Program-made: the position numbers and the translations under genes
The notes under the pieces: generated by a model
Told to the model about the DNA's origin: nothing
Seen by the model: the letters and a program-made list of their open reading frames with translations, nothing else
The model's database searches: none
Assembly: GCA_964012805.1 (NCBI GenBank)
Contig: CAXGUD010000001.1
Coordinates: 822 to 32,821 of the forward strand
From: an uncultured Bacteriovoracaceae bacterium
GTDB taxonomy: Bacteria; Bdellovibrionota; Bacteriovoracia; Bacteriovoracales; Bacteriovoracaceae
Length of the DNA stretch: 32,000 nt
Direction of reading: 5' to 3'
Shown here: positions 5,046 through 24,402 of the stretch, piece after piece
How positions within the stretch are numbered: the stretch's first letter is position 1
Layout: each line of letters starts with the position of its first letter

Positions 5046-5843
5046 TTAAACCCTCCCCAAAGAAAGACCTTTGGCCATATGATGACGGACGGCCCAAATG
5101 ACAAAAAGACCTGGAACAATCGTTAAAACCCCAGCCGCGGCCAAGAGCCCCCAGTCCTGTCCAGCAGCACCTCTCGTCCTTGTCATAACGGCGACAATGG
5201 GCTTGGCGTGTACCGAAGTTAAGGTTCTCGCTAAAAGAAGTTCTACCCAACTAAACATAAAGCAGAAAAAGGCAGCAACGCCAATTCCCGAACGAATAAG
5301 GGGGAGGAATAGCTTAATAAAAAATGACGGAAAAGAATGCCCCTCTAAATAGCTCATCTCGTCTATTTCTTTAGGGATACCGGACATAAAGCCCTCTAGA
5401 ATCCAAACACAAAGTGGGATATTAAAAAGTGTGTGGGCCAAGGCCACTCCCCATAAAGTGTCAAAGAGACCAAAGGTTGAGTAAAGTTGAAAAAAGGGAA
5501 CAAGAAAGACCGCTGGCGGTGACATTCTATTTGTTAGTAACCAAAAAAAGAGGTGCTTATCCCCCATAAAGCGGTATCTCGAAAAGGCGTATGCAGCCGG
5601 TAAAGATACCAACAAACAAAGAATTGTATTGAATAAAACGTATATAAGGGAGTTAAAATAACTCCCGTACCAACTCACATCCTGAAAAATGACCTTATAA
5701 TTCTTTAGCGTAAAGTTTTGGGGGAAAAAACTTAACTCCCCCAAGATTTCTGCATTAGATTTAAAACTCATATTGATAAGCCAATAAAGGGGAATCAATA
5801 TAAAAAGAAAGTAGAGGATTAAAAGCCCCGATCTTTTTTTCAT
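5046..5843 (-). CDS. glpQ: Glycerol-type ABC transporter permease (GlpQ-like)
   Basis: MalG-type permease with EAA-like motif (EMSYLEGHSFPSFFIKLFLPLIRSGIG). Assignment as glycerol permease from operon context. Symbol refers to the transporter, not the phosphodiesterase. Confidence 0.8.
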   Translation of the reverse strand: MKKRSGLLILYFLFILIPLYWLINMSFKSNAEILGELSFFPQNFTLKNYKVIFQDVSWYGSYFNSLIYVLFNTILCLLVSLPAAYAFSRYRFMGDKHLFFWLLTNRMSPPAVFLVPFFQLYSTFGLFDTLWGVALAHTLFNIPLCVWILEGFMSGIPKEIDEMSYLEGHSFPSFFIKLFLPLIRSGIGVAAFFCFMFSWVELLLARTLTSVHAKPIVAVMTRTRGAAGQDWGLLAAAGVLTIVPGLFVIWAVRHHMAKGLSLGRV

Positions 5844-7657
5844 TGAACACTCTTTTTAGGTTGAATCTTTTTTGCTTTCGCCACCTTTTTTGCCCTTTTT
5901 AAAGACCACTCTCTTAAAAGGGTTTTATAGGCAACAGTTTTCCCTTTGGGCTTTTCAACACTCATAAGAGCTTTAGGAGAACCGGGTTGCGATAACCAAA
6001 AGTCTCTTCCCTTAGGCGACTTGGCCATTTTTGGAGCACATTTTTTCATACCTATGCGCTCCAACCTTCCCATAATACGATCCATCTGATTGGCCAAACG
6101 GTCTAAGGCTTGTTGAGGCGTTTTTTCACCATTAATAGCAAGAGAAATATTTTGCCACCAAAGTTGGGCCAATCTCGGGTAATCTGGAACATTCGTACCG
6201 GTCGGTGTCCACCTTACTCTGTCAGGAGAACGGTAAAACTCAACGAGACCACCAAGCTTTGGCGCCATCTTGGTAACAACCGGTGAGTTCAAATCAGATT
6301 CACGAATAGGTGTAAGTCCTTTAATAAACTTTGTTAAAGAAACCGTTTTTGAAACACTAAACTGGGCATAAAGCCAAGCCGCTTTTCTCCTTATTAAAGG
6401 CGTGCTTTTAAGCATCGTCCAAGAACCTGCATCTTGATAACCAAGTTTCATCCCCTCTTCCCAATAAGGGCCATGAGGTGAAGGCGCCATCCTCCACTTA
6501 GGGGTTCCATCTTTATTAACAACTGGAAGACCTTTTTTGAGGCTTGCCTTTGTAAAAGCTGTGTACCAAAAAATCTGCTGGGCCACTTGGCCTTGAGAAG
6601 GCACAGGTCCTGCTTCTGAAAAAGTCATTCCAACGGCCTGTGGTGGAGCGTACTTTTTCAACCAGTCAATGTATTTCGTAAGTGCATAAACAGAAGCCGG
6701 TGCATTCGTCGCTCCCCCTCTTTCAACGCTTGCTCCTACAGGGCGGCAGTTTTCAACACGAATCCCCCACTCATCCACCGGAAGACCATTAGGAATTCCT
6801 TTACTTCCTGTTCCCGCCATAGAAAGCCAAGCGTCCGTAAAGCGCCAACCAAGGGAAGGGTCTTTTTTTCCATAATCCATATGGCCATAAACCCTCTTTC
6901 CATCAATAGTTTTAACATCATTAGTGAAAAAATTAGCTATATCTTCATAGGCAGACCAGTTTTTCGGAACACCTAACTCATAACCGTATTTTGCCTTAAA
7001 CTTCTTTTTAAGATCTGGTCTTTGAAACCAATCATGACGGAACCAATAAAGATTCGCAAATTGTTGATCCGGAAGTTGATAAAGCTTTCCATCCGGTCCT
7101 GTCGTAAAACTCTTTCCTATAAAGTCATCGATATCGAGAGTTGGAAGCGTGACATCTTTACCTTCTCCACCCATAAAGTCACTTAAGGGAACTATATAAT
7201 CCAACCGGGAGTGAGTTCCGATCAAGTCACTATCATTTACATACATATCATAAATGTTTCTACCAGTATGCATTTGAGTTTGAAGCTTTTCAATGACATC
7301 ACCTTCGCCAATAAGATCATGAGTTAACTCAATCCCCGTAAGCTCAGTAAAGGCCTTTGCTAAAGTTTTGGATTCATAAGAATGGGTATCAATACTTTCA
7401 CTAACAACTTGAATTTTCATTCCTCTAAACGGTTTCGAAGCCTTGATAAACCATTCCAACTCTTTTAGTTGATCATCTTTAGAAAGAGTTGAATCCTTAA
7501 ACTCTTTTTTAATGAGATCTTTCGCCTTTTTTAAGGCCATTTTTTCAAAGTCAGTTTGGACATCAGTCGAAGCTCCCAATCCAATAGAGAAAAGACTCAC
7601 AAACCCAATGAGTGAAAAAGTTTTTCGAAAAGACTTTAATAAATGAAAAGCTTTCAT
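5840..7657 (-). CDS. glpV: Glycerol-type ABC transporter substrate-binding protein (GlpV-like)
   Basis: 605 aa, signal peptide; segments such as YWFRHDWFQRPDLKKKFKAKYGYELGVPKNWSAYEDIANFFT resemble the GlpV family. Confidence 0.83.
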   Translation of the reverse strand: MKAFHLLKSFRKTFSLIGFVSLFSIGLGASTDVQTDFEKMALKKAKDLIKKEFKDSTLSKDDQLKELEWFIKASKPFRGMKIQVVSESIDTHSYESKTLAKAFTELTGIELTHDLIGEGDVIEKLQTQMHTGRNIYDMYVNDSDLIGTHSRLDYIVPLSDFMGGEGKDVTLPTLDIDDFIGKSFTTGPDGKLYQLPDQQFANLYWFRHDWFQRPDLKKKFKAKYGYELGVPKNWSAYEDIANFFTNDVKTIDGKRVYGHMDYGKKDPSLGWRFTDAWLSMAGTGSKGIPNGLPVDEWGIRVENCRPVGASVERGGATNAPASVYALTKYIDWLKKYAPPQAVGMTFSEAGPVPSQGQVAQQIFWYTAFTKASLKKGLPVVNKDGTPKWRMAPSPHGPYWEEGMKLGYQDAGSWTMLKSTPLIRRKAAWLYAQFSVSKTVSLTKFIKGLTPIRESDLNSPVVTKMAPKLGGLVEFYRSPDRVRWTPTGTNVPDYPRLAQLWWQNISLAINGEKTPQQALDRLANQMDRIMGRLERIGMKKCAPKMAKSPKGRDFWLSQPGSPKALMSVEKPKGKTVAYKTLLREWSLKRAKKVAKAKKIQPKKSVQ

Positions 7658-8523
7658 TCATTCTCCTTATTTAAAATCCAATTATAAAAAACAAAACTAA
7701 ACAAAAGAATAAAAAGGAAGTAGATGAGAGAGAAGGCGCTAGCAATGCCTAAATCAAATTGGCCAACAGCGAGTTTCGTTAAAAACTGACTCAAAAAAGT
7801 CGTTGAATTCCCAGGCCCTCCTCCTGTTAGAACAAAAGGCTCTGTGTAAATCATAAAGCTGTCCATAAAGCGAAGCATGACAGCGATCATCAAAACATTT
7901 TTTAATTTAGGAAGCTCAATATGACGGAAAACGGCCCAACGGTTGGCACCATCAATAGCAGCGGCCTGGTAATAGGCTTCCGGTATTGCTTTTAAACCAG
8001 AATAGGCCAACAGTACAACAAGAGGAAGCCAGTGCCAAACATCCATAACAAGAACCGTCCACCAGGCATGACTTGGATTATTAGCGTAATTGTAAGTTAA
8101 ACCCAATTGCTTTAGAGTGTGCCCTAAAAGACCTATGTCCGATCTTCCTAATATTTGCCAAATCATACCCACAACATTGTGAGGAATTAAAAGAGGCATG
8201 GCCAGAATAACCAAGCAGAAGGAAACTCTTTTTCCCTTTTTAGGCAACAGAAGAGCGACACCAACACCCAGAGGAATTTGAACAAATAAGACTAAAAAAG
8301 AAAAAAGCATTTGCCTTAGAAAAGCCTGGTGAAGCTCTCTATTTTGGAGGACTTCCCGAAACCACTCCCATCCGACAAAAACTCTTTGGTTAGGCCCCAT
8401 TATATCTTGAAATGAATAATTGACGACGGTCATTAGAGGAATAACTGCACTAAAGGCAACCATTAAAAAAACAGGAAGGACAAAAAGCCAAGCCTTTTCA
8501 TTTTTTATCTTGCCATCTTTCAA
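7654..8523 (-). CDS. glpP: Glycerol-type ABC transporter permease (GlpP-like)
   Basis: MalF-type permease, EAA-like loop (EAYYQAAAIDGANRWAVFRHIELPKLKNVL), 4-bp overlaps with neighbours. Confidence 0.83.
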   Translation of the reverse strand: MKDGKIKNEKAWLFVLPVFLMVAFSAVIPLMTVVNYSFQDIMGPNQRVFVGWEWFREVLQNRELHQAFLRQMLFSFLVLFVQIPLGVGVALLLPKKGKRVSFCLVILAMPLLIPHNVVGMIWQILGRSDIGLLGHTLKQLGLTYNYANNPSHAWWTVLVMDVWHWLPLVVLLAYSGLKAIPEAYYQAAAIDGANRWAVFRHIELPKLKNVLMIAVMLRFMDSFMIYTEPFVLTGGGPGNSTTFLSQFLTKLAVGQFDLGIASAFSLIYFLFILLFSFVFYNWILNKENE

Positions 8524-9599
8524 AGAGACTCTCCAGGAAAAAGGGACACTTTACTCAAGGGAAACTCAACACCAACCCTGTCTCCATGGTGGATTGAATG
8601 GCGACCTTCCAAGACAGCTTTAATTGAAAAAGACTCTTGCTCCAAAGTGAGCAATTGACTTGCACCAAGATAATCCACCTTTTTCACCTTCCAAACCCAA
8701 TCATTTAAGAGACAGGGGTTTAAATTTAGACCAACATGCTGTGGCCTTATTCCTAAAGCCCCCACTCCGTCGGATTGCCTATCTAAGGTTTCAAGGTTTT
8801 TAAAATAGGATTCAATATGGGGAGTGACTTCCATAGGAGAAACTTTTCCCTTATGAACTTTGTAATTTAAAAAATTCATACCGGGAGTTCCAATAAAATG
8901 ACCAACAAAACTAGTTTTAGGGTTTTCAAAAAGGTCTCTTGGACAACCCTGCTGTAATATGCTCCCCTCCTCCATAACCACAACTTCTTCAGCAAAAGTA
9001 AGTGCCTCAGTCTGGTCGTGGGTAACATATAAAAAGCTCAATTCAAGCTCTGCATGAATCTCCTTTAACTTCTTACGGAGAAACCTTTTGAGGCGGGGGC
9101 TTACAGCGGTTAGAGGTTCATCAAAAAGTACCGCTGAGACATCTTTTCTAACAAGCCCTCTTCCAAGCGAAACGAGTTGCTTTAAATGAGGTGACAGTTC
9201 TTTTGCCCCATCCTTAAAGTGATCGGTAAGCTCCAACAATTCTCCTATTTCTTCAACTCTTTTTCTAATCTCGACAGAACCCATTCCGTAATTAAGAAGA
9301 GGAAAGGCCAAGTTTTGAAAAACAGTCATCGTATCGTAGACAACAGGGAACTGAAACACTTGCGCAATTTTCCGCTTTTGTGGTCCGAGGTTTGTCACGT
9401 CTTCTCCATCAAAAAGAACCTTACCCTCTGACGGAGTTAAAAGGCCTGACAAAATTTTAAGAAGGGTCGTTTTTCCACAGCCAGAAGGCCCTAAAAGAGC
9501 TATTCTTTTATGCTTTTCAAACATGCATTCAAGAGGTCCTAAAACCCATTTTTTCTGATCGTAGGAGTGCCTTACTCCTTGGAGTTCAATTTTTGCCAT
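8520..9599 (-). CDS. glpT: ABC transporter ATPase (GlpT-like), intact Walker A/B, non-canonical signature motif
   Basis: Walker A GPSGCGKTTLL, Walker B AVLFDEPL, H-loop YVTHD; signature replaced by ELSPHLKQLVSLGRGLV. Confidence 0.85.
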   Translation of the reverse strand: MAKIELQGVRHSYDQKKWVLGPLECMFEKHKRIALLGPSGCGKTTLLKILSGLLTPSEGKVLFDGEDVTNLGPQKRKIAQVFQFPVVYDTMTVFQNLAFPLLNYGMGSVEIRKRVEEIGELLELTDHFKDGAKELSPHLKQLVSLGRGLVRKDVSAVLFDEPLTAVSPRLKRFLRKKLKEIHAELELSFLYVTHDQTEALTFAEEVVVMEEGSILQQGCPRDLFENPKTSFVGHFIGTPGMNFLNYKVHKGKVSPMEVTPHIESYFKNLETLDRQSDGVGALGIRPQHVGLNLNPCLLNDWVWKVKKVDYLGASQLLTLEQESFSIKAVLEGRHSIHHGDRVGVEFPLSKVSLFPGESL

Positions 9600-9631
9600 A
9601 TACTGTGCCCTAGAAAATTAACCCTACTGTT

Positions 9632-10714
9632 TTAAGAAACACCACAAGGTGATTTTAGTAGTGGCCCTCCTAATTCAAAAACATAGGTCTCGCCCCAATT
9701 AGGCTTTAAATAATACACTTCACCTGGGATAAGATTTTCTATACCTCGTTTTTGTACCTGTAATTCAAGGCCATCCTCTTGCTTAAAGAAAGAAAAAGTT
9801 TCCAAACCATCAAATTCCTGATCTACCAACAGTGCCTCTAAGCAATGGTCGTCCTTTTTATTTACTATTTCTATATTTCCAGGCCTTATGCCTAAAAAGT
9901 ATTCGCCTAAGCCTACCCCTTTCAAATGAGTGGGAACAGGAAACGAAGACGCTTGCCCTAAAACAAGCTGAGACTCTTGTACACGACCTCTTAAAAGATT
10001 CATGGGAGGCTCACTCATCATCTGAGCGGTCTTAATATTGAGCGGCTTTTCAAATACATTCCGGGCCTTATCGTGCTGAAGAATCTGACCATCTTGTAAA
10101 ACAATCGTATCGCCACCCAGACTTAGGGCCTCCCTTGGATCAGCAGTTGCGTAGACAACCGTTGAAGAGCCTTTCTTCAAAATATCCTTTAATTCTTCAC
10201 GGAGTTGCTCCCTCAACTTGTAATCGAGGTTGACAAGAGGATCGTCCAAAAGAAGGAGGTCTGCATCCTTCGCCAGGGCCCTGGCAAAAGCACACCTCTG
10301 CTGCTGTCCACCTGATAACTCCGTCGGTAGACGCTTTAAAAAGTCATGTAGCCCAAATAGCTTGGCCAGCTCTTCAACTTTTTGATTGATTACGCCCTTA
10401 GCGCAACCCCTTCTTCTAAGGGGCGATGCAATATTTTCAAAAACTGTTAAGTTTGGGTAGTTAATAAACTCTTGGTATACAACAGCTATATTTCTTTTCC
10501 TTGGACTCAACCCTGATATATTCACTCCTTTTTGAAGAAGTCTTCCACCACACGGCTTCACAAGACCTGCCAAAACACGAAGTAACGTCGTTCTTTCTCG
10601 GCTTGCAGTCGAAAGAAGACCATGAAGAGTTCCCTCTTCAATTCTGAGGTTTATTCCTGCCAGGATATCTTTTCCTTCATCACGTACAGCAATATTTTCC
10701 ATCACCAAGGCCAT
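9632..10714 (-). CDS. glpS: ABC transporter ATPase (GlpS-like), degenerate Walker A, intact LSGGQ
   Basis: LSGGQQQRCAFARAL signature; P-loop position reads STASRERTTLL; Walker B LLLLDDPL; H-loop position YATADP. Confidence 0.83.
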   Translation of the reverse strand: MALVMENIAVRDEGKDILAGINLRIEEGTLHGLLSTASRERTTLLRVLAGLVKPCGGRLLQKGVNISGLSPRKRNIAVVYQEFINYPNLTVFENIASPLRRRGCAKGVINQKVEELAKLFGLHDFLKRLPTELSGGQQQRCAFARALAKDADLLLLDDPLVNLDYKLREQLREELKDILKKGSSTVVYATADPREALSLGGDTIVLQDGQILQHDKARNVFEKPLNIKTAQMMSEPPMNLLRGRVQESQLVLGQASSFPVPTHLKGVGLGEYFLGIRPGNIEIVNKKDDHCLEALLVDQEFDGLETFSFFKQEDGLELQVQKRGIENLIPGEVYYLKPNWGETYVFELGGPLLKSPCGVS

Positions 10715-10897: not shown

Positions 10898-11263
10898 TCA
10901 GAGAGAGTCCAAAAGCTCATAGAGTTCTTCGAGAATTAAAGGCTTTTGAAGAAAGAAACTTAAAGACAAAGAAGATGCCAAAGCTTTTACTTCTTTAATA
11001 TTTCCTGAGATAAAGACAATGATAGTATTTTGATTCGGCCCATCAGAGTTCCTGATATCCACGGCCAAATTTGCACCTTTAATCACAGGCATCCTGTGGT
11101 CTAAAAAAATAACATCAAAAGCTTCATTATCAAGAAGATCTTTATATTGGTCTTTTTCACTAGCGATAGAAACTTCATATGAAGATCTGAGTTCAAGACC
11201 TTGCTTAAGCATTTCAAGAATTTCTTCTTCGTCGTCAATAATAAGTATCTTTTTTTTGCCCAT
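10898..11263 (-). CDS. stand-alone response-regulator receiver domain protein
   Basis: ILIIDDEEE, VIFLDHRMP phospho-acceptor Asp, FISG, LQKP Lys. No output domain. The supplied ORF starts at 11272 (GTG); the ATG at 11263 has an AGGTGG site at good spacing. Confidence 0.88.
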   Translation of the reverse strand: MGKKKILIIDDEEEILEMLKQGLELRSSYEVSIASEKDQYKDLLDNEAFDVIFLDHRMPVIKGANLAVDIRNSDGPNQNTIIVFISGNIKEVKALASSLSLSFFLQKPLILEELYELLDSL

Positions 11264-11491
11264 AAAACCCACCTGGCTTACCTGACTACACCGTTTAAGT
11301 AATAAACCGATTTCTTTTTCAATTTTACCTGAAATCCAAAAAGATTGAAGGCGTTATCTTTCCATTGTGATAGAAAAGATCACAGAACTCATTTAGAAAA
11401 CTGTTTTAGTCTCTTTCTTTCTATGGCCACCAAATAAAAACCTTTAATAATTTTATTTAAAGTCGACAAGAACTAACAATAAGGAATTGTT

Positions 11492-11515: not shown

Positions 11516-11543
11516 CCGGAGTTTGAAGGAAAATAAAAAAAAA

Positions 11544-12587
11544 ATGCATAGAACAATTAAATCATTCACCCTTATTGTATTTCTTATCCTGATCATACTA
11601 CAAGACAGATCAAAAGCCGCATCTGAGAAGACCGCTTCCCCCGTTTATAATACTTTTGAATACTTGCTAGGAGAATTCAAAGCAGATATTGATGGTCTTG
11701 CAAAAAAAGTTAGTAATTCGATCCTTCTTAAAGTTTCAGTTGAAGGAGATATAGATAAAACCTTTAATAGGCATGTTAGGCGGTCTTTAGAGTCTTTTCG
11801 CATTAAAGGAAAAAAGTTTCGCTTCCGCCAATGTAAGGCCTGTACTTCTTTAAGGGCCGAAACGATAGGCAATCAAATATACCTTAAAAAGGGAATTACA
11901 GAATTTAAGGATATTCAGGAAATCACTCAAAAACTTGGAACAATGTCTTACGCGGAAGCAAGTGTCGAGGATACCGGAACAAGGCTCATTTTTAAGGTTT
12001 CTTTTTTTAGCTCGCTCAATGCAGAACTTCTTTGGAGTAAAACCTATCAAATGAGGCTCGTCAGCTTTGGTGACCTCAGTTTTACAGCAGCGCTTGAAGT
12101 TAAACAGGCCTTTGGAAGAAATAGCCCTCTTCTTTTTAATGCCTCTTTTGGTGAAAAAATCTATGGTATAGGCCTTATTGACCTCAATGTCACACTAGGC
12201 TTAGCATCAGGGAAAGATAACCCCGAGCAAAAAAAAGGTAGTAGTATCGTCCTTAACCCCAATGAAGATTATGTGAACAGTTACTTTGCTATAGGGCCAA
12301 GGTTAACAGTTAACATTAACGAATTTTTTCAAATGTATTCAAACTGGGGAAGTCAGTTTATCTATGCAGGAACCGGTTTTTGCCAATACACTCGATTGAA
12401 AACAAGCAACGATACAGAAGCACCTACTGGAAAATGGGGCCTTCATATTGAAGCGGGGTATGGAGTTCATCTGGGTAGAACTTTTCTCATCACAGCAGGT
12501 TTAAACAAAGGTCTTTTTCTCAGTTCAGATGACAAAGATCAGGATTATCCTCTTCTCTTTAATATAGGATTTGGATTTAGGTTTTAA
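11544..12587 (+). CDS. signal-peptide protein with N-terminal periplasmic domain and probable C-terminal outer-membrane beta-barrel
   Basis: Supplied ORF begins at 11523 (TTG); ATG at 11544 starts MHRTIKSFTLIVFLILIILQDRSKAA. C-terminal half has repeated amphipathic strand-like segments and ends GFGFRF. Confidence 0.7.
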   Translation: MHRTIKSFTLIVFLILIILQDRSKAASEKTASPVYNTFEYLLGEFKADIDGLAKKVSNSILLKVSVEGDIDKTFNRHVRRSLESFRIKGKKFRFRQCKACTSLRAETIGNQIYLKKGITEFKDIQEITQKLGTMSYAEASVEDTGTRLIFKVSFFSSLNAELLWSKTYQMRLVSFGDLSFTAALEVKQAFGRNSPLLFNASFGEKIYGIGLIDLNVTLGLASGKDNPEQKKGSSIVLNPNEDYVNSYFAIGPRLTVNINEFFQMYSNWGSQFIYAGTGFCQYTRLKTSNDTEAPTGKWGLHIEAGYGVHLGRTFLITAGLNKGLFLSSDDKDQDYPLLFNIGFGFRF

Positions 12588-12636
12588 TTTAAGCAAGCAT
12601 TTTTGAATGAGTGTTATCCCCAAAAAGAGAAAAACC

Positions 12637-13302
12637 ATGATGAAAAAATTATTAATTTCTTTTTTTATCCTTGGACCGTTAACTCAATTGAGTTTCTCTC
12701 AAACATCAATCAAAGAAAAAGACGGCTATATCATCATAAAAGAAGGAAAAAGCCGGGTTCAACTCAACCTTCCGGAAGAAATGAAAGGAGCTGATTCCTA
12801 CATTATAAAGGTGAACAAACTTACAGACTCCAAATCTATTAACGCCGACATTTTAAACCGATCGAAAAACCTAGGTCTTTTTAAAAAAACAAAGGATGAT
12901 CTTAAAAAAGGAGCCGTTAACGAAGCCCTTAAAATTGAATTAATCAAAAAAAGCAATGAAGGAACTTTGAGTAAAAAAGAATTAAAGCTTCTCAATGACT
13001 TAAAGGATCAAGAAAAAGATATTAACAAGAAAAAGAATTTAGATGTTATCACAAACCTTGCCATTGAGAGTTATCTTAAAAAGGCTAATGACGCCTACAA
13101 TGCGAAAAATTATAAAAAGGCCCTTCATTACTCGGAAATGGCCGATCAATTAGACTCTAAAAATTATCGAATCAAGGCCATGATAGGTTCACTTCACTAC
13201 CGATTAGGAAATGACCAACTCGCCAAAAAGTATTGGACGGATTCGCTAAAGTTCAACCCCAACCAACCGAATATTAAGCTGTACATGAGAAAAATAAGGT
13301 AA
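12637..13302 (+). CDS. secreted or lipid-independent periplasmic TPR-containing protein
   Basis: ATG at 12637 gives signal peptide MMKKLLISFFILGPLTQLSFSQ; TPR-like repeats YLKKANDAYNAKNYKKALHYSEMADQLDSKNYRIKAMIGSLHYRLGNDQLAKKYW. Confidence 0.75.
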   Translation: MMKKLLISFFILGPLTQLSFSQTSIKEKDGYIIIKEGKSRVQLNLPEEMKGADSYIIKVNKLTDSKSINADILNRSKNLGLFKKTKDDLKKGAVNEALKIELIKKSNEGTLSKKELKLLNDLKDQEKDINKKKNLDVITNLAIESYLKKANDAYNAKNYKKALHYSEMADQLDSKNYRIKAMIGSLHYRLGNDQLAKKYWTDSLKFNPNQPNIKLYMRKIR

Positions 13303-13377: not shown

Positions 13378-15186
13378 ATGAGGCTTAATTTAAAATTAAA
13401 ATATTTATGGATCTTCTTAATTTTTCTTCTCTTCAGCGGGCCTAAAGGTGCTTTTACACAAGAAGCATCTCTTATGAGGAACCAACTTCAGCTCGAAAGT
13501 GAACTTAATTCACAAGTAAGAAAAGAGCTCCTCCAAGTTTTCAAAAAAGAGGAATTTATTATCTCTTCCTCTATAAAATTAAAAAGTTACAGAGTTACAA
13601 AAGTTCTGGAACAAGAAAGCCAAATAAACAAACAACCTAAAAAAAAGGGAAGTGAGCAAGAAATACTGCCAGGTTTTTACGATTCTGCCCCCTCAATAAC
13701 AAACGAAATGGCCAATGAACAAGTAAGAAAAGTATATGGCCACGAAACAAAAACTGAATTAGAAAAGGCCCAATTGAAGATTTTAGTCGATGAAAGCGTA
13801 ACAGATACCAGGCTTGACGCAGCAAAAAAATTACTCACTCAAAGGTTAACAAATAGCTTTGGAGGAAAAATTGACATCCAATTCCTCCCAGCTGTCCTCA
13901 AATCAAAATTAGCACCAGTTCCTTTTTACCAAGAGTTTACTGGATACCTAAAGGATAATATGGGACTGCTTCTCCTGTTTTTTTGTTCACTTATCTTTCT
14001 TTTTGTCCTTGCTTCTTTAATCAACCGTATAAGGCCAAAAGATCAAATGCCTCCGGTTTGGTCATATAACCCACCTATGACACCCCCAATAGATTCAATG
14101 GGAGGCTTTGGTGGCCCCCCTCCTCTTCCTGGAGGAGGTCAAAGACCTCATATAGAATTAGGCCCCAACACTCTTCCCCTACCAGGAAGTCATGAAAAAG
14201 AACTTGATGAATTAGAAATAGACAAAAAAATAAACAAATTTGTTAGCGTTATATGCAAAGAACCTTTTGTCACAAGAAAGTTTTTTCAGACCCTTGATAG
14301 AGATAATCAAAAAAGCTTTATGGCGCTTTTTACAAGTAAGAGTTCAAAAGTGGCGCTTGGAGAATTTTTTGGAGAAACACTTTTAGGACCAGAAGCAGGC
14401 GATATTGCCAGTCTGGACAATGAGATGGACCTTGAGGAAAAAGCCGAATTTTTAGAGTTTATCTCTCTAGAACATGATAGATTTAAAAACCTTATGGCCA
14501 TCAAAAATGGCCAGCGTTTTTCTATTTTATCTCTTATGAATGATAAGGAACTTCAATACGTCTTTTCGAATGAGTCCCCCAGAGATATTGCTTTTCTCCT
14601 TCACTTTCTTCCAAGAGACTCCATTTCTGGTGTTTTAAGCAGGATGGATAGCGAACAGAAAACTGAAATTATTTTAAACTTGAAAAAGTCCTCTCAATTA
14701 TCAGGAGAAGATGAAAGAGAAATTGAAGAAAGGCTTAATAAAAAAATTAATACTTTTGCCTCAAGCGCTTTTTCAACTTTCATGAGTGAAGACTCCTTAG
14801 TTGGAAGTATCTTAGATGAGTCCGATAATGCCCAAGAAATTTTAGATAGAATATCAAGTAAAGATAAAAACCTTGCTAAAAGCTTCAAATCCCACTCATT
14901 AAACTTTGATTATTTTATAGAAAATGAATTGGACTCTCTTGCAAGAATTTTTGAAACAATACCAAATGAAATGTTGGCCTTAAGCCTTATCGAATATGGT
15001 AAAGATGAAAGATCAACAATTTTAGAAGCACTTTCCCCCACAAGGAGAAAAGTCATCGCTTCTTCAATGCTCATGAACTCAAAAGCATCACACGAAGAAA
15101 TAAGAAAAGCCAAATTAGAGTCATCTAAGATTGCTCGGAAAACCTATCAATTATTACAAAGAAATAAAATGGGTAAGGCATCATGA
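13378..15186 (+). CDS. membrane-anchored FliG-like protein: signal/periplasmic region, TM helix, Pro/Gly-rich linker, FliG-like cytoplasmic domains
   Basis: N-terminal hydrophobic segment, TM MGLLLLFFCSLIFLFVLASLI, linker with GGFGGPPPLPGGG; NESPRDIAFLLHFLPRDSISGVLSRMDSEQKTEIILNL resembles FliG middle domain; SILDESDNAQEILDRISSKDKNLAKSF...LALSLIEYGKDERSTILEALSPTRRKVIAS...IARKTYQLLQ resembles FliG C-terminal domain. Confidence 0.72.
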   Translation: MRLNLKLKYLWIFLIFLLFSGPKGAFTQEASLMRNQLQLESELNSQVRKELLQVFKKEEFIISSSIKLKSYRVTKVLEQESQINKQPKKKGSEQEILPGFYDSAPSITNEMANEQVRKVYGHETKTELEKAQLKILVDESVTDTRLDAAKKLLTQRLTNSFGGKIDIQFLPAVLKSKLAPVPFYQEFTGYLKDNMGLLLLFFCSLIFLFVLASLINRIRPKDQMPPVWSYNPPMTPPIDSMGGFGGPPPLPGGGQRPHIELGPNTLPLPGSHEKELDELEIDKKINKFVSVICKEPFVTRKFFQTLDRDNQKSFMALFTSKSSKVALGEFFGETLLGPEAGDIASLDNEMDLEEKAEFLEFISLEHDRFKNLMAIKNGQRFSILSLMNDKELQYVFSNESPRDIAFLLHFLPRDSISGVLSRMDSEQKTEIILNLKKSSQLSGEDEREIEERLNKKINTFASSAFSTFMSEDSLVGSILDESDNAQEILDRISSKDKNLAKSFKSHSLNFDYFIENELDSLARIFETIPNEMLALSLIEYGKDERSTILEALSPTRRKVIASSMLMNSKASHEEIRKAKLESSKIARKTYQLLQRNKMGKAS

Positions 15187-15240: not shown

Positions 15241-15990
15241 ATGCTAGCGAGATTACTACAACTCCCCTTCAGAATTTTGGGAATAGCCTTGATTTTGGCC
15301 GGGACCTATATTTGTGTTAAGTATGATGTGAAGCCTTCTTATTACGGTATTTACCATCCACCATCTCTTGCCCTTGTTGGTTTAGTTTTGGCCGGTGTGG
15401 CGATGTTCAGCTATAAAATTCAAACACTCTTTAGTATTTTCTTAGGTTGCTTAGGTGAATCACCCAGTTCATGCCGCTCCTATTTTCAAATCATGGAAAA
15501 AAAACTACCGGAACTTATTGACGTTTACTTTAGTGAAGGGCCCTCGGCACTAACCTCTCGCCTCCCTAACGGGTCAGAAAAAGAGCTTTGGCTTCAGGTC
15601 TTTACTAAGTTAGAAGCACAAATTTCACCAAGTGATTTGATTCAGGTTATGAATAAATATGCTTCTGACTATAAATCAAGAATCAATAGAGAAGTTTTAG
15701 TCGCCGGAACGGTAGGAAGTTTGGCCCCAACAATAGGTGTTTTAGGTACAGTTTTGGGCCTTATAAAACTTTTAGGGAACCTTCAGGACTTTTCAAGCTT
15801 GGGTTCTAATATGGCCTTGGCACTGATAACAACTCTTTATGGAATTGTTTTCAATGCGCTTCTCATAACTCCCGTTGTAGGTCGGTTAGAGGAATATAGG
15901 ACCTTTAGGCTTCAAATTTTTAGACAGATAATTTATTGGCTTGAATGCCTGGAACAAAAAAGAGCAGGCAGTGTTATAGAGCATAAATAG
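15241..15990 (+). CDS. MotA-like stator protein
   Basis: IYHPPSLALVGLVLAG, then GTVGSLAPTIGVLGTVLGLIKLLGNLQDFSSLGSNMALALITTLYGIVFNALLITPVVGRLEE, matching the conserved MotA TM3-TM4 pattern. Confidence 0.88.
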   Translation: MLARLLQLPFRILGIALILAGTYICVKYDVKPSYYGIYHPPSLALVGLVLAGVAMFSYKIQTLFSIFLGCLGESPSSCRSYFQIMEKKLPELIDVYFSEGPSALTSRLPNGSEKELWLQVFTKLEAQISPSDLIQVMNKYASDYKSRINREVLVAGTVGSLAPTIGVLGTVLGLIKLLGNLQDFSSLGSNMALALITTLYGIVFNALLITPVVGRLEEYRTFRLQIFRQIIYWLECLEQKRAGSVIEHK

Positions 15991-16020: not shown

Positions 16021-16713
16021 ATGACCAAAAAACGTCATAAGGAAAAAGCTTCCTCTTTCGATGATGACCAAGAAAGCGGAGCTGAGAGCATTTCTAAATC
16101 TAGCTGGGCCGCATCCTATGGTGATGTTGTTAGTGTTCTTTTGTGTTTTTTTATCATCCTTTCAACAACAAGTAATATGAATTCAAAAAATGTTGAAAAA
16201 ATGAAAGAGGCCATGAGTGATGAAACACCTCAAGGTAAAAAGAAAAAGCTCAAATCAAAAGACGTCATGAAAAAACTCAAAGAGATAATTAAAATAAAAA
16301 ATCTTCAGAAGGATATCACTCTTGTAGAGGAACTTGACGGAACAAAGCTCATTATTAATGATCGTCTTCTTTTTTCTTCAGGAGGCGCAAAAATCATGCC
16401 TGAAAACATCGGAGAAATAAGAGAAATTATAAGAAGCTTTATCGACCTACCACCTCACTACCGGTTTAAAGTCGAAGGCCATACAGATGATGTTCCCATC
16501 AAAAGTAGAAAATTTCCTACAAATTGGCACCTCTCAGTTTCAAGGGCCCTTTCTCTTTTACAAGTTTTTCTTCAAGAAGGTATTTATGAAAAAAGACTAA
16601 GCTTCCATGGCTTTGCTTCATTCCAACCTCTTGCAAAAACTGAGGGGCTTCAGGGTGAAGACCTTAGAAAGGCCAGAAAAAAGAACAGAAGAGTTGTCAT
16701 TAAGGTTTACTGA
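16021..16713 (+). CDS. MotB-like stator protein with OmpA-like peptidoglycan-binding domain
   Basis: WAASYGDVVSVLLCFFIILST (plug/TM with ion-binding Asp35, codon 16123-16125) and RFKVEGHTDDVPIKSRKFPTNWHLSVSRALSLLQVFL. Confidence 0.9.
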   Translation: MTKKRHKEKASSFDDDQESGAESISKSSWAASYGDVVSVLLCFFIILSTTSNMNSKNVEKMKEAMSDETPQGKKKKLKSKDVMKKLKEIIKIKNLQKDITLVEELDGTKLIINDRLLFSSGGAKIMPENIGEIREIIRSFIDLPPHYRFKVEGHTDDVPIKSRKFPTNWHLSVSRALSLLQVFLQEGIYEKRLSFHGFASFQPLAKTEGLQGEDLRKARKKNRRVVIKVY

Positions 16714-16766: not shown

Positions 16767-17855
16767 ATGAAAAAGAAACACCCATTTTTTTTGGGACTTT
16801 GTATTAAGGTCCTTCTTTTTACCATAATTTCTCCTTTCGGGGAAGCTGCAACGAACTTTTTTAAAATCACAAACATTAATTCAGGGGGTGATCCACTTGT
16901 TAACGCTGCACTTTTGGAATTTGAATCCAATGTCAATCAAAATCTTCCTTCAATAGAAAGTACTGACCTGACAACAGATACAGTCAACTCCAATATCATC
17001 TCTAATAAGGGACTTGGAGTTGACTATACAAACTCCATGAAACGTTTTTTGGTAGGCTGGTCTCAAAGTGCTTCAGTTAATGTCGGAAGCAGTGAAAATA
17101 TCCTAAGTGGGGCCAAAACCGTAAAAGGTTTTGGAATGGCAACCCAATTTAACTTAGGGTTTAACCTTCAACCTTTAAAGAAACGTAAATTGATCAACCT
17201 ACCTTCATTTTGGGGTCTCGACCTTAATAACTCAAAAATTTTTATGGGCCTAATGACCGGACGAACAAGCCAAAAAGTAAGTGGTTATACACTCGGCTTC
17301 GAAATTTTTACCGCCAACCTCCGTATTATGACGAAGCTCAAAAAAGCTGAAGACTTCAAAAGCTACTTTTTTAAGTGGGGTGGTATTGACTTAAGCACAG
17401 GGCTCGAAACTAATAAAACAGCCCTCTCAGTCAGTGTGCCAAGAAATGAGTCAATTACGGCTTCCAATTCATACAAAACAACTTTTGACGGCATAGTTGG
17501 CTTTAAGGTCGATTCCTCAAGTTTTAGTATTCCTCTTGAAGTCTCAGCCAGTGCAACCTTCTTTTCTTTTATCGATTTGTTTTGGGGCCTTGGTACTGAT
17601 TTAAACTTTGGGTATGGAAGGGGCTCGAGTTTTTCAGACTCTAATGTCTTGATCTTTGATAACTTAAATAACCAAGTTGGAACTGCTGACGCCGAGTTCA
17701 ATGTAGGCTCAACAGGGTCCCCCTCAATCTTGAATGCTCGGTGGTTTGCTGGGACCCAAGTTAACCTATGGAAAATGAAAGTTTCACTTCAAGCACAACA
17801 TTCTATGATCCACGGGATTTGGGGCTTTGGAGGTAATTTTAACTTCATTTTTTAA
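16767..17855 (+). CDS. probable outer-membrane beta-barrel protein
   Basis: Signal peptide, Gly/aromatic alternating strands, C-terminus GGNFNFIF ending in Phe. Confidence 0.65.
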   Translation: MKKKHPFFLGLCIKVLLFTIISPFGEAATNFFKITNINSGGDPLVNAALLEFESNVNQNLPSIESTDLTTDTVNSNIISNKGLGVDYTNSMKRFLVGWSQSASVNVGSSENILSGAKTVKGFGMATQFNLGFNLQPLKKRKLINLPSFWGLDLNNSKIFMGLMTGRTSQKVSGYTLGFEIFTANLRIMTKLKKAEDFKSYFFKWGGIDLSTGLETNKTALSVSVPRNESITASNSYKTTFDGIVGFKVDSSSFSIPLEVSASATFFSFIDLFWGLGTDLNFGYGRGSSFSDSNVLIFDNLNNQVGTADAEFNVGSTGSPSILNARWFAGTQVNLWKMKVSLQAQHSMIHGIWGFGGNFNFIF

Positions 17856-17872: not shown

Positions 17873-20467
17873 TTAGATACTTGGAATAATTAAAGAAAAG
17901 GTTGTCCCCTCTCCTTCCTTCGTATCAATTTCGATTCTGCCGCCTAGACTTTCAATATTTTTAAGGACGACATCCATTCCCACTCCCCTACCGGATATCT
18001 CAGTTACATTACTCGCCGTCGAAAAGCCTGGTTTAAAAATGAGTTCTGTCTTTTCTTTTTCATTTAAAAAGTCTTTCGTGGAATCTATGAGACCTTTTTC
18101 TATGGCCTTATTATAAACATCTTCACCATTGATTCCCCGGCCATCATCTTTCAAAGTTAGAATAATATCAGGTCTTTTACGGGTTAGACTAACTTCTATA
18201 TTTCCACTTTTTTCAATTCCATGAGCTATACTATTATTGATAAGATGGATAACAGATTCCCTTATAATTTTTGCATTTTTTCTGTCAAAAAGGGCCTCTA
18301 CTCCACTTACTTTAAAAGATACATTTTTTTCAAGTTTTCTTGCTTCTCTAAAAACTGTTGGCTTTAACTTCAACAATTCTCCTTTTAATTCACTCATCAT
18401 GAGGTTTGCAAAAATTCTTAAAACGGCTTTTGCAGAAGTCATCTCTTTAGCTGAATGAAGAGCTACTTCAAATTTATTTTTTGGGACCTCGATAAACTCC
18501 TCAGACCCATCACTTTCAGAGGAAAGAAACTCTTCCCCAAAAACTTCTTGCGCGCTCTCTTTATAAAAAGTAAGGAGTTCCGTGAGCATTTCTTTAGTCC
18601 GTTCTATCCCATTTTTTTCATAATCAGTTTCAAATCCATGAACTTTATTACTTAATGACTCCAAATTAAAGAACCTTGAACTTCCTTTAATTGTGTGCAG
18701 ACTTCTTTTGACCCCTTCCTCATCACCCCACTCTTCCAATGTTTCAAAAACCTCTTTAATAAAAACTCTAAATTCACTTTTAGTATTGGAAACAATTTCC
18801 TGGAGGACTTGAATCCTGTATTCAGCTTTTTCCTGAGAAACTCTAACAGCTTCTTTTAACTTTTCCTCCTCAGTTATGTCCTCAATAATAAACATAATTC
18901 TTCTTACGATTTCTTGATCATCAATAATAGGACTTAATTGAATTTTTACAATCTTCTCATCTCCGTTTTCCATTTTTAAATTAGTCATCTTGGGAATAAC
19001 ATCTTGCATACTATCAAATTGGAAAATATCCATGTTGATAGAAATACTAAAGACAAAGGCCATTTTTTCTCTAAATTCTTGATTAAAAAGCTCCGCACAT
19101 ACATTTTTCCCTACAATATCTACACCAAATATTTCCGCAGAGTATTTTGAGACAGGAAAAATTACTTTATAAGATTCATCCACAGAAAAAACAGCTTGGC
19201 GCATATTATTCAATATATCTTTTGTCTCATTCAATGAGGAAAAGAGTTCATTTGTCCTTGCTTTAACTTTATTTTCCAAACCCAAATTTGTTTTTTCAAT
19301 TTTACGATAGAGCAATTTAAGTTTATGGTTAGCATCATTTAACTCTTCCGCCCTAATTGCGATGTCATCCCTTTGTAATTTTATATACTCTGCAAAACCA
19401 AAGGACAGAACAATAAGCTTGAGAGAAGTACCTAATAAAAGAGAGTTATCAATGAAGAGGTAAGGTCCAAGAACTTTAAATTTAAATAATATCTGGACAA
19501 TAACAAACAGAACAAAAATATTAAGCGATATGAAAAAATATTTAGCAGTAACACTACCCTTCCTTAATTCATCGTAGGAAAACCAGAATGAAAAAATTAT
19601 GATGGTTGAAAAATAAAAATAAGAAAAGCCTAGGCCGGCCGTAATGGGAGTAAAGAGGCAAACAAAGGTCAGGACGAGTCCTCCCTTTATAAAATTGTTG
19701 CAAAAGTGCAGTAGTTTTTCTCTATCCAGATTTATATAACTTTTTCCAAAAATCAATAAAGTGACGCCAGTTAGGGCAACTAAGCTATTTTGGCCTTGAC
19801 CAGATAACCAGGAACCTTTAAGAAAAGAAACAAATACCATAAGCGTTAATGATAAAACAAAGGCATAAAGAGAAAAAAGAATATAGTTAATATAATTGGA
19901 GGTTAAATAATTGAAAATATTATAAATTATTAATAAAATAATAACTCCATAAAAAAATGAATATAAAGTTTTTTCTTCAAATTGTTTTTCATAGAAAGAA
20001 TCAATCTTTAAAATAGAGATGGGCAACTTTACTTTTTCTTTAAACCTATTACTTTTAAGAACTTGGATAAGCACTTCACTTGTATTTGATTTAATTTTAA
20101 AACTAGGATGTCTATTTTTTAGCCTGAAAAGCATAGAATTATCAGGAGACCAAACCTCAGTTCCTCCTGAAGCTGACTTATAGTAGAATTTAAAGTTCTG
20201 AAAATAGCTATTGTTTATAGTAATAACCTTTTCGAAAGGCCGCTTGGAAATTTTAACCTTTATGTATAGGTCTTTTTTAAAATCATTTAAGATATAGGAG
20301 TCTTCGATGGATTTAACTTTTTGAATATTATTTGGTTTAATAAGTCCTTTGACACCTTCTTCTAACGAACCCAAATATTGAAAAGCCTCGACTTCATATC
20401 CAGAACCAGAAAAACTATTTCCCATGAATAAAGAAATAAAAAATAGAAATGTTATTACTGTTCTCAA
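17873..20467 (-). CDS. hybrid sensor kinase: 7TMR-DISM-like sensor and TM region, PAS, Hpt, CheA-type HATPase; no CheW domain
   Basis: Seven hydrophobic helices after an extracytoplasmic domain; PAS-like NMRQAVFSVDESYKVIFPVS...ITEEEKLKEA; Hpt motif RSLHTIKGSSRFF; N-box IIRESVIHLINNSIAHGIE, DDGRGI, GRGVGMDVV, GEGTTFSLIIP. Confidence 0.85.
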   Translation of the reverse strand: MRTVITFLFFISLFMGNSFSGSGYEVEAFQYLGSLEEGVKGLIKPNNIQKVKSIEDSYILNDFKKDLYIKVKISKRPFEKVITINNSYFQNFKFYYKSASGGTEVWSPDNSMLFRLKNRHPSFKIKSNTSEVLIQVLKSNRFKEKVKLPISILKIDSFYEKQFEEKTLYSFFYGVIILLIIYNIFNYLTSNYINYILFSLYAFVLSLTLMVFVSFLKGSWLSGQGQNSLVALTGVTLLIFGKSYINLDREKLLHFCNNFIKGGLVLTFVCLFTPITAGLGFSYFYFSTIIIFSFWFSYDELRKGSVTAKYFFISLNIFVLFVIVQILFKFKVLGPYLFIDNSLLLGTSLKLIVLSFGFAEYIKLQRDDIAIRAEELNDANHKLKLLYRKIEKTNLGLENKVKARTNELFSSLNETKDILNNMRQAVFSVDESYKVIFPVSKYSAEIFGVDIVGKNVCAELFNQEFREKMAFVFSISINMDIFQFDSMQDVIPKMTNLKMENGDEKIVKIQLSPIIDDQEIVRRIMFIIEDITEEEKLKEAVRVSQEKAEYRIQVLQEIVSNTKSEFRVFIKEVFETLEEWGDEEGVKRSLHTIKGSSRFFNLESLSNKVHGFETDYEKNGIERTKEMLTELLTFYKESAQEVFGEEFLSSESDGSEEFIEVPKNKFEVALHSAKEMTSAKAVLRIFANLMMSELKGELLKLKPTVFREARKLEKNVSFKVSGVEALFDRKNAKIIRESVIHLINNSIAHGIEKSGNIEVSLTRKRPDIILTLKDDGRGINGEDVYNKAIEKGLIDSTKDFLNEKEKTELIFKPGFSTASNVTEISGRGVGMDVVLKNIESLGGRIEIDTKEGEGTTFSLIIPSI

Positions 20468-23388: not shown

Positions 23389-24402
23389 ATGAATAAAGAT
23401 ATTTCATCTTCCTGGATTAATTTGGCACATCACCGTCTCGGTACTAAAGTCCTGTACGCTACTGACGACTTTTTTGGAGAAAAAGAAAACCTGATAAAAC
23501 CTGGACGAGGAATCTATGTTCCTGATAAATACACGGACCGAGGAAAATGGATGGATGGATGGGAAAGCAGGAGGAAAAGAGTTGAAGGCCATGATTATTG
23601 TGACATCAAACTTGGGTTACCTGGAATCATCGAAGGCCTAGATATTGACACAAACCATTTTCTCGGCAATCACCCCCCCTTTGCTTCTGTTGAAGCGACC
23701 TATGACAACAATATTGTAGAGAATACTAAATGGACTGAAATACTAACTCAATCTCCTTTAAAAGCAGGCTCTCAAAATATCTTTGAAATCTCCAATGGGC
23801 AAAAATGGAAATACGTAAGGCTCCATATATATCCAGATGGAGGAGTCGCCCGCTTTAGGGTTTACGGAACTCCAGCAATTGACTGGGACCAGAAAAAAAA
23901 CGTGGAGAAAATAGATTTGGCCTCTATTTTAAACGGTGGACGGGTGGTTCTCTGTAATGACATGTTTTTTAGCGATAAAAATAACCTTATTATGCCTGGC
24001 CCTGGTATCAATATGGGGGATGGATGGGAAACGAGGAGGAAAAGGGCCAAAAAATTAGGAGATCCACTCGACCCTGATTGGGCGATCCTTTCCTTGGGTA
24101 AACCAGGTATAATTTCAGAAGCGGAAATTGATACGTCTCATTTTGTAGGTAATTTTCCCGACTGTGCTTCTTTAGAAGGCTTATTTCTTGGGGAATCTGA
24201 CAATAACATAATAAAATCCTTACCTGATCTAACTGATAAAGATTGGAGACCCTTACTTCCAAAGACGAAACTCAACCCAGATTACAAGCATTTATTTGAA
24301 AAGGAAATTCAATCAATTGGGAAGATTTCCCATGTGCGCATTAGGATTTATCCGGATGGTGGTGTCAGTAGACTTCGACTTTGGGGTAAGCCAACGTTTT
24401 AA
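23389..24402 (+). CDS. alc: allantoicase
   Basis: Two allantoicase-type repeats; GKWMDGWESRRKR...HDYCDIKLGLPGIIEGLDIDTNHFLGNHPPFASVEA and MGDGWETRRKR...DWAILSLGKPGIISEAEIDTSHFVGNFPDCASLEG. Confidence 0.93.
   Translation: MNKDISSSWINLAHHRLGTKVLYATDDFFGEKENLIKPGRGIYVPDKYTDRGKWMDGWESRRKRVEGHDYCDIKLGLPGIIEGLDIDTNHFLGNHPPFASVEATYDNNIVENTKWTEILTQSPLKAGSQNIFEISNGQKWKYVRLHIYPDGGVARFRVYGTPAIDWDQKKNVEKIDLASILNGGRVVLCNDMFFSDKNNLIMPGPGINMGDGWETRRKRAKKLGDPLDPDWAILSLGKPGIISEAEIDTSHFVGNFPDCASLEGLFLGESDNNIIKSLPDLTDKDWRPLLPKTKLNPDYKHLFEKEIQSIGKISHVRIRIYPDGGVSRLRLWGKPTF

Follow-up and report, generated by a model that had tools for sequence, protein, structure and literature searches.

The locus and the fusion gene

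The stretch of DNA analysed here, called the window in the following, comprises 32,000 nucleotides of contig CAXGUD010000001.1 (assembly GCA_964012805.1) from an uncultured Bacteriovoracaceae bacterium. It contains six co-directional genes, 19–75 nt apart, which encode, in this order, an outer membrane-type protein (OMP1), a protein with tetratricopeptide repeats (TPR), a FliF/FliG-like fusion protein, a MotA-like and a MotB-like stator subunit, and a second outer membrane-type protein (OMP2) resembling Lsa36. The third of these genes is the subject of this work. It was found as a single open reading frame (ORF) in the ORF listing, at 13378..15186 on the + strand, starts with ATG and codes for 602 amino acids; the start codon is supported by homologues with 87–90% identity, whose alignment begins at residue 1. 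On balance, we favour the view that its product is a shortened FliF fused to a complete FliG, which would act as the rotor-side partner of the adjacent MotA and MotB, in a rotor-stator set of flagellar type that has neither export apparatus nor filament.

A sequence-only reading of this ORF had described a signal-like segment, a periplasmic region, a transmembrane (TM) helix, a flexible linker and sequence resembling the FliG middle and C-terminal domains. All of these elements were recovered by Pfam searches, hydropathy and structural modelling, and the composite architecture is confirmed; the three peptides quoted in that reading were located at residues 133–172, 232–257 and 510–538. A first AlphaFold2 (AF2) model, made from seven close sequences, was poor, with a predicted local distance difference test score (pLDDT) of 57, and was superseded by a model from a 54-sequence alignment (A2) with a mean pLDDT of 80.9 and values > 90 in the periplasmic core.

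Following the chain from its N-terminus (all positions on the + strand), a Sec-type signal segment (residues 1–27; 13378..13458) is indicated by hydropathy; its hydrophobic core of 13 residues is too short for a TM helix. In a Kyte-Doolittle scan the short N-terminal run corresponded to residues 9–21, and the sole strong hydrophobic segment to residues 197–215 (score 3.03), within the TM helix at residues ~195–217 (13960..14028), for which the model has a helix at 183–217. Between the two lies the periplasmic domain (residues 28–180; 13459..13917), which in the AF2 model and by Foldseek resembles the third ring-building motif (RBM3) and β-collar of FliF. It carries the most conserved feature of the family, an LPGF motif (residues 97–100; 13666..13677) in the loop at the tip of a long β-hairpin. 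AxA-type sites and classical signal peptides were seen in many family members (hydropathy and sequence scan); since the N-terminal segment thus resembles a cleavable Sec signal, the mature fusion protein is probably single-pass.

The TM helix is followed by a cytoplasmic linker (residues 218–277; 14029..14208) with 15 Pro and 9 Gly among its 60 residues, which is predicted to be mostly disordered (pLDDT < 50 at 219–235 and 237–273 in the 54-sequence model). The remainder consists of a helical region resembling FliG_N (residues 278–377; 14209..14508; moderately supported by Foldseek), a FliG middle domain (residues ~378–470; 14509..14787; Pfam FliG_M, hhalign) and a FliG C-terminal domain (residues ~471–602; 14788..15183; Pfam FliG_C, Foldseek). 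The latter includes the equivalent of the torque helix, SPTRRKVIASSMLMNSKASH, at residues 553–572 (15034..15093), as placed by alignments to FliG.

The family and its conservation

The family was delimited by an exhaustive HMMER search of 1.84 billion representative proteins, with clusters formed at 50% identity. A homologue search with the single protein had yielded six close relatives, and the 54-member alignment as query added none; the divergent members were reached by HMMER. At E values up to 0.001, 276 proteins were obtained, and most of the top 150 were 480–720 amino acids long and aligned end to end. Local hidden Markov models (HMMs) detected both the periplasmic and the FliG part in 111 of the 146 analysable matches, i.e., in at least 111 clusters, and members beyond the close relatives were 16–25% identical to the window protein. 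Conservation is highest in the periplasmic hairpin loop, where G99 was kept in 54/54 sequences, P98 and F100 in 52/54 each and E80 in 50/54; in the cytoplasmic half the peaks are R556 (51/54), N530 and F381 (50/54 each). In a neighbour-joining tree of the FliG middle and C-terminal (MC) domains, 24 of 32 short canonical FliGs formed one group free of fusions. Members are annotated at their source as "hypothetical protein", apart from the name FliG which UniRef gives to a member from Pseudobacteriovorax. Judged by these alignments, the fusion protein belongs to a real family, so far unnamed.

The same data bear on the possibility that the operon is a decaying, functionless remnant of a flagellar operon. 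Isolated rotor genes have been reported in non-motile species (PMC12199754), and a remnant would be in keeping with this; the intact reading frame and the fact that a family of such size, age and divergence has kept its architecture, its invariant motifs and a synteny of five genes make decay a very improbable explanation.

Unfused gene pairs, consisting of a mini-FliF with TM helix and Pro-rich tail and of a FliG-like gene, were encountered in two loci (L061, 7860–8040; L062, 6560–6720). The breaks coincide with a C9 run in L061 and with an A6/poly-A run in L062, the contigs are of long-read type, one of them labelled with 1.75x coverage, and at either junction the downstream frame reads through; the breaks are therefore probably assembly frameshifts, and the pairs were set aside as probable artefacts.

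The periplasmic half

In the 54-sequence model the periplasmic elements follow each other as helix 26–51, strand 60–82, loop 83–114, strand 115–138, helix 143–161 and strand 165–172. This α-β-β-α-β order is that of a ring-building motif, here with both central strands extended as a long hairpin. A Foldseek search against the PDB gave the integrative FliF model 9a67_A (E 3.5e-7) and 17 chains from cryo-electron microscopy, comprising S-ring, RBM3 and collar of Salmonella and Vibrio FliF (E 2.4e-4 to 2.1e-3, probability 1.0). The next-best fold was that of SpoIIIAG (E 8.3e-2, probability 0.97). A clear non-ring fold at the N-terminus was thus not found, the best fold matches being FliF RBM3 and S-ring chains, and together with the FliG matches reported below they bear out the description of the protein as a FliF/FliG-like composite.

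A periplasmic region of ~150 residues has room for only one ring-building motif, so that RBM1 and RBM2 are absent. In FliF, these SctJ-like motifs surround the export gate, and FliF assembles into a ring of about 33–34 subunits. The model predicts an RBM3 with β-collar, then a TM helix and a cytoplasmic tail which reaches FliG, as in FliF, the likeness being one of fold. From this fold we infer that the fusion protein may form a ring.

The cytoplasmic half

Pfam FliG_M matched residues 391–462 (E 5.1e-11; 43.1 bits, gathering cut-off 25) and FliG_C residues 491–588 (E 6e-8; 33.4 bits, gathering cut-off 23.3); a weaker match was obtained with MgtE_N (1.8e-7), which is related to FliG. Among the 54 family members, Pfam matches were found to FliG_C in 51, to FliG_M in 36 and to FliG_N in 13. 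With hhalign, E. coli FliG (from NC_000913.3) was aligned over its residues 108–316 with a probability of 96.6% and an E value of 5e-10. A profile of the close relatives matched T. maritima FliG MC at E 2.7e-8; with the 54-member family profile, searched against PDB sequences, the value for T. maritima FliG became 2.6e-34, well outside what chance would give, compared with 0.005 for MgtE. The C-terminal part had been read from the sequence as FliG-type, and this proved to be so; an unrelated helical repeat with a better score than FliG did not appear.

Foldseek aligned 318–336 columns to full-length FliG chains of 310–331 residues (e.g., 8wiw_3, 4.3e-7; 3hjl, 1.8e-6), and the isolated C-terminal domain superposed on 8ucs_H and 1qc7 with a TM-score of 0.78 and ~2 Å root mean square deviation (rmsd). 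Since the alignment spans full-length FliG, residues 278–377 probably correspond to FliG_N; a direct sequence match to FliG_N was not obtained for these residues of the window protein. The cytoplasmic half is therefore FliG-like, with middle and C-terminal domains and probably also the N domain.

It is not a FliG in the strict sense. Scores for the equivalog-level NCBIfam models TIGR00207 and PRK05686 were 44.4 bits (226.7 required) and 26.5 bits (550 required), and instead of a soluble FliG-type protein of ~330 amino acids among flagellar genes, there is a protein of 602 amino acids with signal, periplasmic domain and TM helix. The EHPQR motif of FliG_M, which binds FliM, is not conserved: the window protein has E-S-P-R at the EHPQ columns of the hhalign alignment, and in the 54 members His is absent among the eight commonest residues listed at the His column, while Gln is rare.

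The stator and its predicted contact with the fusion protein

The fourth gene (15241..15990) encodes a MotA-type stator A subunit of 249 amino acids with four TM helices and a cytoplasmic loop of ~90 amino acids. It matches PF01618 (2.6e-19) and, in TM3/TM4, solved structures of flagellar MotA/PomA (E 1e-13 to 1e-10), compared with ~0.03 for ExbB/TolQ; the equivalents of the TM3/TM4 prolines P173 and P222 of MotA are kept. The fifth gene (16021..16713) encodes a MotB-type stator B subunit with plug (MotB_plug, 4.6e-11), a peptidoglycan-binding OmpA-like domain (3.3e-9) and, in its TM helix, Asp35, which aligns with E. coli D32. By these predicted features, i.e., channel domain, prolines, plug, Asp and OmpA-like domain, the pair qualifies as a MotA/MotB stator. 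Equivalog-level scores were again low in NCBIfam, at 66.4 bits (340 required) for MotA and 121.7 bits (283 required) for MotB with the MotD model. The MotAs of the module are a distinct group, with scores of 202–373 bits versus ≤ 111 bits for all others.

A stator of this kind could also belong to a Zorya-type anti-phage system, and the MgtE_N match could point to an MgtE-like regulator of Mg2+ transport. MotB does match ZorB models (1.7e-18), and MotA weakly ZorA (0.0076). Flagellar models gave better values (MotD 4e-35, MotA 1.9e-18), the MotA of 249 amino acids has no long ZorA tail, and PADLOC found no match to ZorC, ZorD or ZorE among the other genes; Zorya was therefore rejected. MgtE was rejected likewise, in view of the profile values for FliG and MgtE given above and of the missing CBS and MgtE membrane domains, and we regard either alternative as barely credible.

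The predicted contact between rotor and stator appears to have been remodelled. The sequence-only reading had put the torque helix at residues 510–538; this placement could not be upheld, since the segment aligns with the MFXF hinge and the start of ARM_C, and the equivalent is found at 553–572. Of the charges known from E. coli (K264, R281, D288, D289, R297), only R281 has its equivalent, the conserved R556. The positions of D288/D289 are taken by S563/M564, and hydrophobic or polar residues prevail there among family members; the position of R297 is H572, and the equivalents of R297 and K264 vary among members. The same reading had expected the altered charge pattern to be mirrored in MotA, and this expectation was borne out. 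In the window protein the charges R90 and E98 of the MotA loop are replaced by F97 and T105; at the R90 column, ten of the other 13 aligned module MotAs have Tyr, that of Melittangium has Arg and those of L036/L043 have Thr, and the E98 position is variable.

The Melittangium fusion protein has retained LREEL and an Arg equivalent to R297, and its MotA keeps the Arg in the R90 column; an ALE tripeptide of this MotA probably corresponds to E98, though the automatic alignment puts Ala there. In L036/L043, one acidic residue is kept in the FliG part, and MotA has Glu at E98 and an Arg beside the R90 column. The R90 side and the D288/D289 side are thus kept or lost together, as a direct contact between fusion protein and MotA would predict.

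In the majority of the module MotAs, the aromatic residue at the place of R90 is preceded by an acidic one, in a D-x-Y-Y/F pattern at residues ~92–98. Judging from the alignment, this acidic residue could be the new partner of Arg556.

Gene linkage and hosts

All 14 diverse loci have the genes for MotA, MotB and the fusion protein side by side, and when MotA alone was used for searching, the fusion gene adjoined every MotA of the subfamily that had enough flanking DNA. Homologues of OMP1 and of the TPR protein were each found by blastp in 10 of the 14 module loci, with an additional weak HMM match to the TPR protein in L036; no further gene besides these five is conserved across the 14 loci. 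Three gene orders occur, namely OMP1-TPR-fusion-MotA-MotB, OMP1-TPR-MotA-MotB-fusion and a divergent arrangement. Adjacency persists in all of them, i.e., the linkage has been kept through rearrangement. Within the operon of the window, no intergenic terminator or promoter signal rose above the expectation from shuffled sequences.

As for the hosts, the MotA gene of the window shows 100% identity to contig MDTD01182839.1 from a marine metagenome, and the fusion protein shares 87% identity with one encoded in a metagenome-assembled genome of the Halobacteriovoraceae (Bdellovibrionota). Two cultured organisms carry the module as well, Pseudobacteriovorax antillogorgiicola (Bdellovibrionota, Oligoflexia) and, as a more distant branch, Melittangium boletus DSM 14713 (Myxococcota). 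The Melittangium fusion protein has 571 amino acids, with signal peptide, PPGF, TM helix and Pro-rich linker; its FliG_C domain scores above the cut-off of Pfam.

One could suppose that the module is an accessory or alternative rotor-stator set for the ordinary flagellum of the host, such as a paralogous MS-ring/FliG that flagellated predatory bacteria would employ in certain situations. Flagella are found in Halobacteriovoraceae and other Bdellovibrionota, the contig of L064 which carries the module also encodes FlgK ~7 kb away, and the UniRef name FliG for the Pseudobacteriovorax homologue would agree with such a role. The fusion protein has neither RBM1/RBM2 nor the FliM-binding motif, however, no flagellar genes are present in the module loci shown, and the module occurs in Melittangium boletus. 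Moreover, the interface residues have diverged jointly with a dedicated MotA, which makes cross-talk with a canonical motor unlikely. Altogether this supposition appears quite improbable.

A different alternative is a force transducer without a ring, in which the fusion protein would be a single-pass link similar to TonB or TolA; MotAB would grip FliG_C and pull or twist single molecules, and the periplasmic domain would pass the force to OMP1 and the TPR protein at the outer membrane, as in the Ton, Tol-Pal and Agl-Glt systems. The gene set, with a motor of 5:2 type, an inner membrane-anchored protein, a TPR protein and an outer membrane-type protein, resembles an envelope-spanning energiser; in three distant loci (L003, L004, L005) the module is directly preceded by genes for a sigma factor of the extracytoplasmic function (ECF) type and a putative anti-sigma factor, an arrangement known from Fec-type Ton systems; and a FliM/FliN scaffold for a ring, itself predicted from the model, is lacking. 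TonB, TolA and GltG/J contact their motors via a TM helix, however, and not via a cytoplasmic FliG domain; the ring-forming FliF RBM3/collar and SpoIIIAG, rather than TonB or TolA, are the matches to the periplasmic fold, and a MotB with plug and peptidoglycan-binding domain is of the fixed flagellar stator type. A transducer of this kind is therefore unlikely, in our opinion, albeit less so than the other alternatives.

A possible rotary mechanism

If the fusion protein is the rotor-side partner of MotA and MotB, the following sequence of events may be envisaged. The RBM3-like periplasmic domains would oligomerise to a ring in the membrane, as in FliF and SpoIIIAG, and the long Pro/Gly linker would permit the FliG domains to arrange as a cytoplasmic ring beneath the membrane. 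Units of the MotA5B2 type, opened via the plug and held to the peptidoglycan through the OmpA-like domain of MotB, would conduct ions past the conserved Asp, push on FliG_C and so rotate the ring, across a contact that may have been re-made with an aromatic residue for R90 of MotA and hydrophobic residues for the acidic pair of FliG. Torque or force could then leave through the periplasmic collar, with its near-invariant LPGF loop, towards the TPR protein and the outer membrane protein with the CxxC motif. Since the module occurs in a myxobacterium, its output should be something other than flagellar swimming.

Taken further, the module could be an autonomous rotary motor of flagellar type without type III export apparatus, rod, hook, filament and FliM/FliN, which drives, via the TPR protein and the CxxC outer membrane protein, a process of the outer envelope in Bdellovibrionota and in non-flagellated Myxococcota. 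This extended proposal is tentative. Architecture, fold matches, family conservation, gene linkage and covariation at the interface are observed, whereas ring formation, rotation, direction of force flow and biological output are deduced for either version of the proposal.

Several observations weigh against a FliF-derived rotor or against parts of the argument. Although the fold of the periplasmic part agrees with FliF ring modules, comparisons of sequence did not follow: hhalign against E. coli FliF was not significant (probability 16%), nor was the family profile against the FliF chain 12dr_A (E 0.19), and at E up to 1 none of the 54 members matched YscJ_FliF or YscJ_FliF_C of Pfam. The two weak matches, which are independent of each other, do coincide at the beginning of RBM3, on its first helix and strand (E. 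coli FliF 235–269; 12dr_A 245–286). The Foldseek TM-scores to FliF are modest (0.38–0.44, rmsd ~10 Å). The periplasmic domain of Melittangium matches the family HMM weakly (1.4e-4), as a distant branch, and that myxobacteria are non-flagellated gliders is general knowledge of the group, not taken from the Melittangium genome. R556 is conserved though its classical partner E98 in MotA is lost, and the joint retention or loss of the R90 and D288/D289 sides is a small sample of three subfamilies only. Finally, there is no FliM or FliN in the cluster or among the window ORFs scanned that could hold a FliG ring together; among these ORFs no other flagellar family was matched either, including export gate, rod, hook and filament. 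Of the suggestion of a minimal MS-ring/C-ring fusion, the composite therefore stands, but not its full sense, with RBM1/RBM2, EHPQR and fliM/fliN missing.

To our knowledge, FliG and MotAB cooperate only in the flagellum. For their function outside of it, the module is a candidate both concrete and widespread; it pairs a rotor-type with a stator-type component, which have a co-evolved interface and envelope partners of their own. Its cultured carriers, Pseudobacteriovorax antillogorgiicola and Melittangium boletus DSM 14713, are open to study. Should it rotate, it would be a new entry on the short list of ion-driven rotary machines and a natural minimal system for torque generation by FliG and MotA, in which neither export apparatus nor switch complex takes part. 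The exchange of the salt bridges (Arg/Asp-Asp to aromatic/hydrophobic) could serve as a natural test of how important the charge pairs are for torque. If the rotary proposal is true, a torque-generating module can exist independently of an export module, either through exaptation of the motor core or as a relative, still extant, of a rotary device that predates the flagellum; this is relevant to the question whether flagellar motor and export apparatus originated as modules that can be separated. A survey in 2025 explicitly asked about rotor proteins in species that have no filament (PMC12199754).

Other genes of the operon and its surroundings

OMP1 (11523..12587; alternative ATG at 11544) consists of a signal peptide, a periplasmic α/β domain with a CxxC motif, of which C97 and C100 are invariant (alignment A4), and a C-terminal part resembling a β-barrel, with an aromatic end similar to a β-signal, GFGFRF. 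No relative was detected in PDB, Pfam or NCBIfam, apart from weak matches to OMP_b-brl; OMP1 is an uncharacterised family in its own right. The following gene (12607..13302) encodes a secreted TPR protein (TPR_2, 2e-5), a conserved partner of the module. OMP2 (16767..17855), the last gene of the operon, is lineage-specific and was found only in close Halobacteriovoraceae relatives (L001, L009–L013); it has a signal peptide and an end resembling a β-signal, NFNFIF, and it resembles the Lsa36/LIC_11975 family of surface (lipo)proteins of Leptospira, with an NCBIfam match (5.5e-20) below the cut-off.

With respect to regulatory genes, the ECF-type sigma factor (Sigma70_r2) and the putative anti-sigma factor of 255–285 amino acids occupy 4312–5518 in L003, 2985–4360 in L004 and 6326–7670 in L005. 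The window is without such a pair; upstream of its operon there is a divergent response-regulator gene (10898–11272, – strand). Convergent with the operon, and next to its end, is the gene of a large sensor kinase (17873–20467, – strand) with 7TMR-DISM 7TM, PAS, Hpt and HATPase_c domains. In L004 and L060, too, response-regulator genes were seen near the module, which may be coincidence or may reflect shared regulation.

Farther away, a protein of 697 amino acids (26107–28200, + strand) matches TGase_elicitor of Pfam (PF16683, E 1.1e-35). This family is best known from the transglutaminase elicitors of oomycetes and would be unusual in a marine Bdellovibrionota contig. An operon for an ABC importer (5046–10714, – strand) has two ATPase and two permease genes and an unusually long solute-binding protein of 605 amino acids. 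A protein with Lnb_N/DUF7840/DUF7843 (1429–3243, – strand) and an allantoicase (23389–24402, + strand) look like ordinary neighbours without apparent link to the module.

Comparison with known systems

One of the closest counterparts is the flagellum itself. The order of domains in the fusion protein is collinear with E. coli fliF and then fliG, which are adjacent and overlapping genes. Module and flagellar motor share the RBM3/collar domain, TM helix, disordered tail, FliG N-M-C, a MotA with four TM helices and the prolines, and a MotB with plug, Asp and OmpA-like domain. In contrast to FliF with its two TM helices, the fusion is one polypeptide in which a signal, probably cleaved, stands in place of TM1, and RBM1/RBM2 are absent; the module differs furthermore from the flagellar motor in the EHPQR motif, which is not conserved, in the replaced charge pairs between torque helix and MotA loop, in its own TPR and outer membrane-type partners and in a myxobacterial host. 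Since it fails the equivalog tests for FliG and MotA, the profile test for FliF and several motif tests, it is a variant of the flagellar rotor/stator kind rather than a member of those families.

No account of the module was found in the literature searched, coverage of which was incomplete; the only relative described there is the FliF-FliG fusion of Chlamydiaceae (Bergeron 2016, PMC4768692). This is the nearest natural precedent, a protein of ~330 amino acids in bacteria without flagella, and like the present one it occurs naturally as one chain, in which a shortened periplasmic part of FliF, a TM helix and a FliG-like cytoplasmic part are joined. It keeps RBM2 and one RBM-like unit, without a SpoIIIAG-like RBM3, and of FliG it has an M-like region only; it was proposed to work with the injectisome, and no MotAB partner was described (PMC4768692). 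By that published description it differs from the fusion protein, which has retained RBM3 and a complete FliG with its torque domain, and whose gene always adjoins those of a stator.

Laboratory fusions of FliF and FliG, i.e., Salmonella mutants and Vibrio FliFG (PDB 8z4d/8z4g), are covalent 1:1 fusions which still assemble rings, and the Vibrio fusion chain matches the fusion protein both by sequence (8.9e-23) and by S-ring fold (4.1e-4). Unlike the module, these are engineered or spontaneous, of full length and inside complete flagella, and not a natural stand-alone system. SpoIIIAG likewise has a single RBM with a β-insertion and forms a large ring; it differs in having neither FliG domain nor stator, and it belongs to a sporulation channel of Firmicutes.

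In ExbBD-TonB, TolQR-TolA-TolB-Pal-CpoB, AglRQS-Glt, GldLM and ZorAB, an ion motor of the inner membrane energises the outer envelope, and here the module is similar in principle, with TPR and outer membrane-type genes in its set and, in some loci, the ECF sigma factor upstream. The difference lies in the motor, which in the module is a flagellar MotAB with peptidoglycan anchor, coupled via a cytoplasmic FliG rather than via TM contacts.

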